A DNA stretch of 64,000 nt, taken from assembly GCF_009931435.1 (NCBI RefSeq), contig NZ_CP043414.1; one strand, written 5' to 3'. Source of the stretch: Escherichia coli. GTDB taxonomy: Bacteria; Pseudomonadota; Gammaproteobacteria; Enterobacterales; Enterobacteriaceae. Made by a program: the position numbers. This document shows, in pieces, positions 1 through 3,000 of the stretch. Numbering within the stretch: position 1 is the first letter of the stretch; each line of letters starts with the position of its first letter.

Positions 1-3000
1 CCGACATAATTCACCTCCTTTTTAAGCTATCATCTGGCTTAATTAACTGTTTATTATTTAACTCATGGCAGATGTTTATTTCCATCTAAAATGGCATCAA
101 CGGGAAAATAAGCAATGTGTTTATTGTTATTCTTCTCATTTATTTTATTGGTATGGTTGTTTTTTAAATCAATTGTTGCTTCCTCTTTATATTTCTTGGT
201 TGCTTCTTCAGGCGTAAAAGAAGATTTTTTTATGTTTATGTTCATTTTGCCGACTCACTCTGTTTGAACTTCCTCTTCGGAATTGGCTGTCAAGAGTTCA
301 AGATAAGCATTAGCCATCTCTTTAACTTTTTCATTTTGACTGTAGGTTACGACTGTATTAAATAACTCCGTGGCCATTTTAATGTTTTTTAAGCCCATCT
401 GGCATTGGCCCATATAATAAACCAAAGAGAAATCGTTATCGGGAGATAGCATCAAACAGATATGATACATGTCGAATGCCTTTTGATATTCTTTCTTCAA
501 CTGACAGACGGCGGCATATCCCTTTAAATAATTATAATTTTGGAAATCATAAATACAGAGAAATTTAAAAAAGAGTTCAGCTTCGTCAAGTCTTCCTTTT
601 TCATAAAAGTTATAAGCGTAAGCATAAACGCCTTCAAGGGTATCCGGGGTTATGCCATGCAGTTCTGCAAGCGTTGCTCCCATACCTAGTGCACGTTCGA
701 ACTTACTGGCAATTTCTTTATTTTCTTCTAAATCCAGATTTGCGCTTTCCATCTCTACTCTCTCCTTTCGAACATTCTTTGTTCAGACTTCACCATTTTT
801 TAGAGGGTGGTGATATCAAAATTCGCTCATTTTTATGCCCATCCGTTGGACTTCCTTTTCTGCATTAAAAACAACTATTGTTTCAATGAGATAAGATTTT
901 CTATGTGATGAAATGAAAATAATGTAGAGGGAATTTTATCCACAATCCTGATGAACGGGTTCAATTCTGATTGGAATTTGAAAAAGCAGGTGATTTACTG
1001 ATGTGCGAGCGTACGTCAGTGGCTGCTGGCCTGAGCGCGGAGGTGTGCGAAATTCACATATCCGGGCATTCCACCTTACCCAGCGCTTCCCAGTAGTTAT
1101 TCTGATTATTACGCTCCATCGCCACAATAGCTTCGCGGATATGTTGTTTGTTACTCTCATCAGACAACATTAATTTTTCCCACGCTTCGTCTGATAATGA
1201 CGCCTGTGGCGTGCAAATTTTACGTAAATCTTGCAATACCGTGGTCTTTTCTTTTGCCGACTGTAGAGAACTGAATGGCGACTCGGCCTGAGAAATGGCT
1301 GGGAAAGTCAGGAATACGGTAATCATGAGTAGCATCGTTGGCTTCATAGCTGCAACCTTCTGCAAATGTGCATCGAATGAAGCATAAGTGTAGTTTGCTT
1401 TTGCCGCTCTCATCATGCTGTACGAAAGGTGTTTGCGTGGTCAGTAAGAAGTGCCAGTTTTATATACCTTTTTCTTCTATTCGATAGCTTTTCGTTTTTT
1501 AAATCGTAGTGATCTTGCCATTATAGTCAGTTAACGATTAAAAAAAGGATAAAAAATGAAACTGACAACACATCATCTACGGGCGGGGGCCGCATTATTA
1601 CTGGCAGGAATTCTGCTGGCAGGTTGCGACCAGAGCAGCAGCGATGAAAAGCACATTAAAGTGGGCGTTATTAATGGCGCAGAACAAGATGTCGCGGAAG
1701 TCGCTAAAAAGGTGGCAAAAGAGAAATATGGCCTCGATGTTGAACTGGTAGGATTTAGCGGTTCGTTGCTACCGAACGATGCGACAAATCATGGCGAGCT
1801 TGATGCGAACGTCTTCCAGCATCGACCCTTTCTTGAACAAGATAATCAGGCGCATGGTTATAAACTGGTAGCGGTGGGAAATACATTTGTCTTCCCCATG
1901 GCGGGTTATTCCAAAAAAATCAAAACCGTGGCGCAAATAAAAGAAGGCGCGACAGTGGCGATCCCCAACGACCCGACCAACCTTGGTCGCGCGCTTTTAC
2001 TGTTGCAAAAAGAGAAGCTAATTACTCTGAAAGAGGGAAAAGGGTTACTACCTACCGCGCTGGATATAACCGAGAATCCTCGTCATTTGCAGATTATGGA
2101 ACTCGAGGGGGCGCAGCTCCCGCGCGTACTGGATGATCCCAAAGTTGATGTGGCGATTATCAGCACCACTTACATTCAGCAGACCGGGCTTTCTCCGGTG
2201 CACGACAGCGTATTTATTGAAGATAAGAATTCGCCGTATGTGAATATTCTGGTGGCACGGGAAGATAATAAGAATGCAGAAAACGTGAAGGAATTTCTGC
2301 AATCTTATCAATCGCCCGAAGTCGCTAAAGCGGCAGAAACCATCTTTAACGGTGGCGCGGTGCCTGGCTGGTAATTCTCACTCATGCCGCGCCGGACGAT
2401 TTATTTTTCTGGCGCGGCGACGGGAATCCATTGAAATCAAAATCACCGATGACAGAATCAGCAGTGTGCCCAGCCAGTCCGGCAATGTGAACGTGATCCC
2501 CAGCAACAGCAAAGAGAGCAGCGCGCTACTTAATGGTTCTGCACAGCTCAAAATGCTGGCTTTTGGCCCGCCAATGAGCTGTGCGCCTTTCAGATATAGA
2601 CTAAAGGTTAGCGAAGTTCCGATTACCACCAGATAGAAAAACGCCAGAATCAGGCTGCCATTAACCACGAAGTTTGTTCCTTGCCCGGCATAGAAGGGCA
2701 GCAGGATTAGACCACCGATCAGCATACTCCAGCCGACGACCGGTAACGTGCCATAGCGGGCAATCAGCGTTGAGGGATAGGTGGTATAGAATGCAGCAGC
2801 AAATGCCGAGGCAATGCCCCAGAATAACGCGGCCGGAGAGATCGATAATGACGTCGGATTACCGTGTGTCACCAATAAAAAAGTCCCGATCAACGATGTC
2901 AAAATAGCGCAAAAAACCAGAATGCCCGGGCGGGATTTACGCACCAGTGAGAACCAGGCGACGATAATCGTCGGTGAGAGGAATTGCAGCACCGTTGCCG

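Follow-up and report, generated by a model that had tools for sequence, protein, structure and literature searches.

Why should a gene for a type III secretion system (T3SS) chaperone stand, to all appearance alone, beside core genes of an Escherichia coli chromosome? The question is raised by a 64,000-nucleotide (nt) stretch of contig NZ_CP043414.1 (NCBI RefSeq assembly GCF_009931435.1), referred to below as the window, at whose left edge a preliminary description had placed an orphan chaperone gene, seen either as the rim of a larger T3SS-related locus or as a stranded remnant. The gene is very likely eicA, the chaperone gene that opens the eip locus (selC-B island), with the chaperone role proposed for it, and it looks orphaned because the left edge of the window cuts off the next gene of the operon after its first 7 bases. 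In sequence, position and context eicA matches the published description; both the gene and the island are already known.

The eicA gene and the adjoining eip operon

The chaperone of strain 042 is identical to EicA at 160 of 165 residues (97%), and its gene occupies the same position. The order of genes in 042 is yicS, the chaperone gene, a frameshifted small open reading frame (ORF), sctE, a gene for a hypothetical protein, a SipD-family gene, eilA, air and nepI, and the DNA of the window is co-linear with 042 from yicS through the start of eipB. The suggestion that the gene marks the edge of the eip locus reported near selC in enteroaggregative E. coli is borne out by this identity and this placement. 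The gene names eicA, eipB, eipC, eipD, eilA and eaeX/air, as well as the placing of the island with nepI (yicM) on one side and the backbone genes by selC on the other, are those of the literature, according to which EilA controls the eip genes together with eivF and eivA of the second type III secretion system of E. coli (ETT2), and the eip locus is associated with an intact ETT2 (PMC7058095, PMC11068852, PMC4210603). For the eip locus, or selC-B island, of 042, PMC7058095 cites Ren et al. (2004) together with Sheikh et al. (2006).

The left edge of the window falls within the operon itself. Read on the minus strand, the first 30 bases, ATAGCTTAAAAAGGAGGTGAATTATGTCGG, comprise a ribosome-binding site and the initial 7 nt of eipB. 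In strain 2013C-4282 the coding sequence of the YopB/SseC-family translocon subunit begins at position 15007 of the locus examined (L001), which corresponds to base 7 of the window, and the eipB junction is identical in contig L008. The earlier statement that the window lacks translocator genes is thus correct only trivially, since bases 7..1 on the minus strand are the first 7 nt of eipB. The features in this part of the window are as follows.

1..7, minus strand: first 7 nt (ATG TCG G) of eipB, the gene for a SipB/IpaB-like major translocator, cut by the window edge
8..62, minus strand: intergenic eipB leader with the ribosome-binding site AAGGAGGTG at 20..12, aligned with 042 and 2013C-4282
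63..245, minus strand: ORF60, of 60 amino acids (aa), found in the ORF scan and annotated by PGAP as a hypothetical protein
255..752, minus strand: eicA, class II translocator T3SS chaperone of 165 aa, first gene of the eicA-eipBCD operon
753..1053, minus strand: island-specific AT-rich region upstream of eicA, in which 3.6% of positions differ from 042
1054..1347, minus strand: yicS, the core gene that flanks the eip island on the right (NCBIfam YicS_fam, 129 bits; annotated as yicS in all relatives examined)

What lies to the left of base 1 was read in related genomes. Window positions 1-1500 were compared with a collection of 5,426 complete E. coli genomes; at least 80% of this segment is covered in 728 of them, the best identity, 99.7%, being found in RMDEC465, 2013C-4282 and WL297. 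Each of the matches listed spans features annotated as a SycD/LcrH chaperone, as yicS, as a hypothetical protein and as a YopB/SseC/SctE/SipB translocon subunit. The whole 6,984-nt segment from eilA to eicA is present over at least 80% of its length in 721 of the 5,426 genomes, compared with the 728 that have the first 1.5 kb of the window. In 2013C-4282 the genes follow one another in the order iatC (an inverse-autotransporter adhesin), eilA (a HilA-family regulator), an IpaD/SipD-family tip protein gene, a gene for a hypothetical protein, the gene for the YopB/SseC-family translocon subunit, a gene for a 60-aa hypothetical protein, the chaperone gene, yicS, nlpA, yicL, setC and the gene for tRNA-Sec.

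Contigs with the exact ORF60 allele of the window were looked up as well, and seven places were listed from 23 contigs read. The same gene set was found in all seven: the chaperone, ORF60, a 593-aa protein with the T3SSipB domain, a 383-aa protein, a 449-aa T3SS_TC (tip) protein, a 565-aa Trans_reg_C protein and a large Big_1/Invasin_D3 protein. The products of eipB (Pfam T3SSipB), eipC, eipD and eilA are 593, 383, 449 and 565 aa long, respectively. Three of the contigs (L008, L010 and L013) have zero mismatches to window positions 1-5245, and in them eipB, eipC, eipD and eilA are free of internal stops and of the same lengths as in 042. To judge from these identical contigs and from the closest complete genomes, the rest of the eip locus (eipB, eipC, eipD, eilA and the adhesin gene air/eaeX/iatC) in all probability lies just left of base 1. 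The epithet orphan was therefore abandoned, as the window starts 7 nt into eipB and identical contigs carry intact eipB, eipC, eipD and eilA and the adhesin gene leftward.

The gene itself was located exactly as first described, at 255..752 on the minus strand in AT-rich DNA beside core genes: the G+C content is 0.32-0.39 across window positions 1-900 versus 0.45-0.53 in the core genes rightward. The ORF is uninterrupted over 165 codons, from an ATG at 752-750 to a TGA at 257-255, and is preceded by a ribosome-binding site, AGGAG, about 10 nt upstream of the start. On the evidence of its sequence EicA belongs to the class II T3SS chaperones (SycD/LcrH/SicA/IpgC), in agreement with the initial assignment to the SicA/IpgC family. 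It reaches 114.1 bits against TIGR02552 (LcrH_SycD), above the curated cutoff of 104.8, and its best NCBIfam E-value (6.5e-44) was obtained with the SicA model NF011859. Class II chaperones make up the top seven matches in the PDB, with IpgC in the first three places, followed by PcrH, AcrH and SycD. The alignment of EicA residues 5-153 with the sequence of the IpgC crystal structure (E = 6.3e-40; 64 of 149 residues identical) is, at the sequence level, near-gapless and full-length. Two TPR_3 repeats are recognized by Pfam, and with 165 aa and a predicted isoelectric point of 4.59 EicA is small and acidic, as class II chaperones are (about 150-170 aa, with about 3.5 TPR repeats). The Leu pocket of the concave groove of IpgC is formed by Y40, Y44, Y47, F59 and A78, which have been termed strictly conserved (PMC10701871); in the alignment mapped to IpgC numbering EicA retains each of these residues, as Y43, Y47, Y50, F62 and A81.

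Compared with the 042 allele, eicA has a pN (nonsynonymous) of 0.013 and a pS (synonymous) of 0.115, and the ratio of about 0.11 points to purifying selection on the gene. When one genome per GTDB species was searched with the EicA peptide YAYAYNFYEKG, written as a degenerate DNA pattern, no orthologue with the exact peptide was found outside E. coli. The sole match was a 10.7-kb contig (L007, JAIJJM010000039.1) whose yicS-eip locus is of the E. coli 042 type; its assignment to a metagenome-assembled genome of 'Collinsella sp.' is almost certainly a binning error.

Proposed function and competing readings

By homology with IpgC, SicA, SycD and PcrH, EicA would hold hydrophobic translocators in the cytoplasm. 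Its concave TPR groove is predicted to bind EipB through the Pro-x-Leu-x-x-Pro anchor at residues 62-67, which read PMLAPP or PMLALP and thus form a P/VxLxxP anchor; the anchor of IpaB is PELKAP at residues 65-70, and the motif has been defined in PMC3443056. EipC is probably held by EicA as well. Binding would keep the translocators soluble, undegraded and prevented from premature mutual association, until EicA could hand them to the unlinked SPI-1-like (Salmonella pathogenicity island 1-like) ETT2 injectisome at glyU, the candidate partner apparatus of the literature (PMC7058095, PMC11068852). Once the translocators were exported, free EicA might co-activate the InvF-like AraC regulator EivF, in the manner of SicA with InvF and IpgC with MxiE. 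The ETT2 of 2013C-4282 encodes an InvF-like regulator, which matches the InvF model at E = 1.9e-54 and scores 184.7 bits, where the cutoff is 259.

Several observations weigh against the identification of the gene as eicA with this role. Within the window itself, all that is present of the eip operon beyond eicA is 7 nt of eipB. On the SicA equivalog model NF011859 EicA scores 149.9 bits, under the cutoff of 184, which indicates a related family member and not SicA itself. A second SicA-like TPR protein, YgeG, of 163 aa and 49% identical to EicA, is encoded within ETT2 (L006 31399-31890, minus strand), so that strains positive for eip hold two paralogous class II chaperone-like proteins. In EipC no strict [PV]xLxxP motif was found, the nearest stretch being PELRVK; this is a feature of the substrate and not of the chaperone. 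The MxiE/InvF-type box GTATCGTTTTTTTANAG, with up to three mismatches allowed, gave no matches in the window. No experimental work on binding or chaperone activity of EicA was found in the literature searched, so it is by homology that the chaperone and co-activator roles are proposed. Finally, the RefSeq annotation of ETT2 in 2013C-4282 and WL297 shows a frameshift in the YscQ/HrcQ (EpaO) gene and a split SpaN/EivJ gene.

The last of these points opens the question of activity. ETT2 is nearly complete in 2013C-4282 (L006 8400-33000) and WL297 (L015 1-13000), the two genomes with the closest allele (99.7% over window positions 1-1500) in which it was read, and given the frameshifted epaO of this lineage EicA may have no working export route in the present strain. 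It is accordingly conceivable, if somewhat doubtful, that eicA is a functional relic, with ETT2 broken and export of the Eip proteins impossible, the gene persisting as H-NS-silenced baggage or in a T3SS-independent role. The frameshift in epaO and the split eivJ in both genomes, the internal stop that WL297 also has in ygeH, and the widespread mutational attrition of ETT2 described in the literature (PMC7058095, PMC11068852) all speak for a relic, whereas the eip genes are all intact in 2013C-4282 and WL297, and eicA, with its pN/pS of about 0.11, is under purifying selection. Such a relic would concern the activity of eicA and not its identity, and is compatible with the assignment of the gene to the eip locus. 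The combination of an intact eip locus and a constrained eicA with a frameshifted ETT2 could also mean that EicA, or the Eip proteins, have a role independent of ETT2 export; EicA might, for example, co-activate a regulator of the AraC type. A distinct idea is that a small protein, or a leader that controls translation of eipB, might be encoded by the conserved 3' half of ORF60. Both ideas are speculative and must be regarded as unlikely.

Two further explanations concern identity. That the operon downstream of eicA had been deleted in the source genome, with a solitary chaperone gene left behind, would agree with the fact that the window ends before the region left of base 1 can be seen directly, and such remnants do exist: in AST85 (L002 5900-6200) what survives of the chaperone gene, its first 153 nt, is fused to a C-terminally truncated iatC, with eipB, eipC, eipD and eilA deleted. 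The window, however, retains the whole of eicA, the whole spacer and the ribosome-binding site and start codon of eipB, with no breakpoint; the full locus is present in all seven listed places with the ORF60 allele, three of them 100% identical to window positions 1-5245; and of the 728 carrier genomes, 721 have 80% or more of the eilA-eicA segment. A stranded remnant, one of the two possibilities first entertained, is therefore very unlikely. Even less can be said for a generic TPR protein that has nothing to do with type III secretion and is situated by chance in AT-rich DNA, an explanation so improbable as to be negligible. EicA does show weak matches to the unrelated TPR families PrsT and MamA (E about 5e-4), but models of T3SS chaperones do better by 30 to 40 orders of magnitude, one of them with a score above its curated cutoff, the top seven PDB matches are class II chaperones, the groove residues are kept, and the gene lies directly upstream of a SipB-family gene. 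The generic protein was thus refuted by the chaperone model scores, the PDB matches and the SipB-family neighbour. The preliminary description would have been refuted by a lack of T3SS genes within about 10 kb upstream together with a grouping of the protein with TPR proteins from outside type III secretion; the reverse was found on both counts, as T3SS genes lie less than 10 kb away in identical contigs and the protein groups with T3SS chaperones.

Spacer, island border and remainder of the window

Between eicA and eipB there is a spacer of 247 bp. No terminator-like site was called in it, which is consistent with co-transcription of the two genes; there was no signal of RNA structure in the spacer (z = 0.42), and a search of Rfam over window positions 1-5500, with E up to 1, yielded no match. 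Most of the spacer is taken up by ORF60, which is absent from the published six-gene description of eip and is the sole addition made to it here. No NCBIfam family was matched by ORF60. It is uninterrupted across 27 near-identical proteins that form one cluster and frameshifted in 042 and in contig L007, and its pN/pS relative to 042 is 0.49, compared with 0.11 for eicA. The differences from 042 are unevenly spread, with 16 of 90 nt changed in the first half and 4 of 93 in the second. ORF60 is probably not a functional gene. The exact ORF60 allele is also found in CP057959.1, which carries a CP4-like island as well.

On the other side of eicA, genomes that lack eip match the window from base 1056 onward only, and in them the distance between nepI and yicS is 40 bp, which places the right border of the eip island at about 1055/1056, by the yicS stop codon. 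The eip locus is an AT-rich island of about 20 kb between nepI and yicS, found in a minority of E. coli, of which the window covers the right end only. The promoter of eicA presumably lies within 753..1053; on the minus strand no sigma-70 promoter was called upstream of eicA, and shuffled sequence gave at least as many calls in total. To the right of yicS follow nlpA, yicL and setC.

Beyond setC, from about 4.7 to 38 kb of the window, extends a CP4-like island with a rhuM remnant, genes for DUF4942, a CbtA/CbeA toxin-antitoxin, RadC, antirestriction and DUF932 proteins, an H-NS paralogue and an XRE regulator, a dGTPase-family gene next to one for thymidylate synthase, and a type I restriction-modification system with an AAA ATPase. 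Several among them resemble phage-defence cargo. Positions 41648-64000 form a multi-transposon resistance region (Tn21/Tn3-family transposases, merA, IS1326 and a TnsB/Mu-like transposase) that is 100% identical to NZ_OZ546938.1; although chromosomal here, this region is widespread on plasmids. In spite of the selC neighbourhood, ARAGORN found no tRNA genes in the 64,000 nt, which places tRNA-Sec beyond the right edge and would give the island between setC and selC a length of more than about 59 kb.

The combination of this eip allele with this selC-side island occurs in none of the 5,426 complete genomes. Among them, the best matches to window positions 1056-25000 (99.1%) are entirely without eip, and the best full-coverage matches to positions 1-9000 reach 96.1%. 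These comparisons suggest a mosaic source strain that the collection does not represent.

Publications on the eip locus and eicA date from 2004-2006 onward, and annotation pipelines routinely name the family. The case illustrates that a gene at the edge of a sequence window can seem orphaned when its operon runs on outside. With the window, the E. coli lineages whose eip translocator operon is apparently intact gain a further member; use of the operon depends on the state of ETT2, an already recognized question.

Comparison with known systems

The closest counterpart is EicA of 042, which is of the same length and is encoded at the same position between yicS and eipB, on an island likewise situated between nepI and yicS. 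The two proteins differ by five conservative substitutions. The ORF between eicA and eipB is open here and frameshifted in 042, and the neighbour on the selC side, an 11-kb P4-like selC-A element in 042, is here a large CP4-like island with a resistance region.

SicA of Salmonella SPI-1 is, like EicA, a class II TPR chaperone encoded directly upstream of a gene for a SipB-type translocator, and it plays a dual role, as a chaperone and as a co-activator of InvF. The eip operon differs in that its presumed apparatus, ETT2, is encoded at an unlinked site, glyU, and in the 247-bp spacer that separates the chaperone and translocator genes.

With IpgC of Shigella (PDB 3GYZ and 3GZ1) EicA shares 43% identity over 149 residues, co-linear across the whole TPR domain, and the PxLxxP anchor of EipB, the presumed cognate of EicA, is found at nearly the same position as that of IpaB. 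IpgC is encoded on the virulence plasmid, in contrast to the chromosomal island that carries eicA, and there is no MxiE box in the window. YgeG, the ETT2-encoded relative, scores lower than EicA on both family models, with 124.8 bits on the SicA model and 79.5 bits on TIGR02552, the latter below the cutoff of 104.8, and, unlike eicA, ygeG has no translocator gene annotated beside it.

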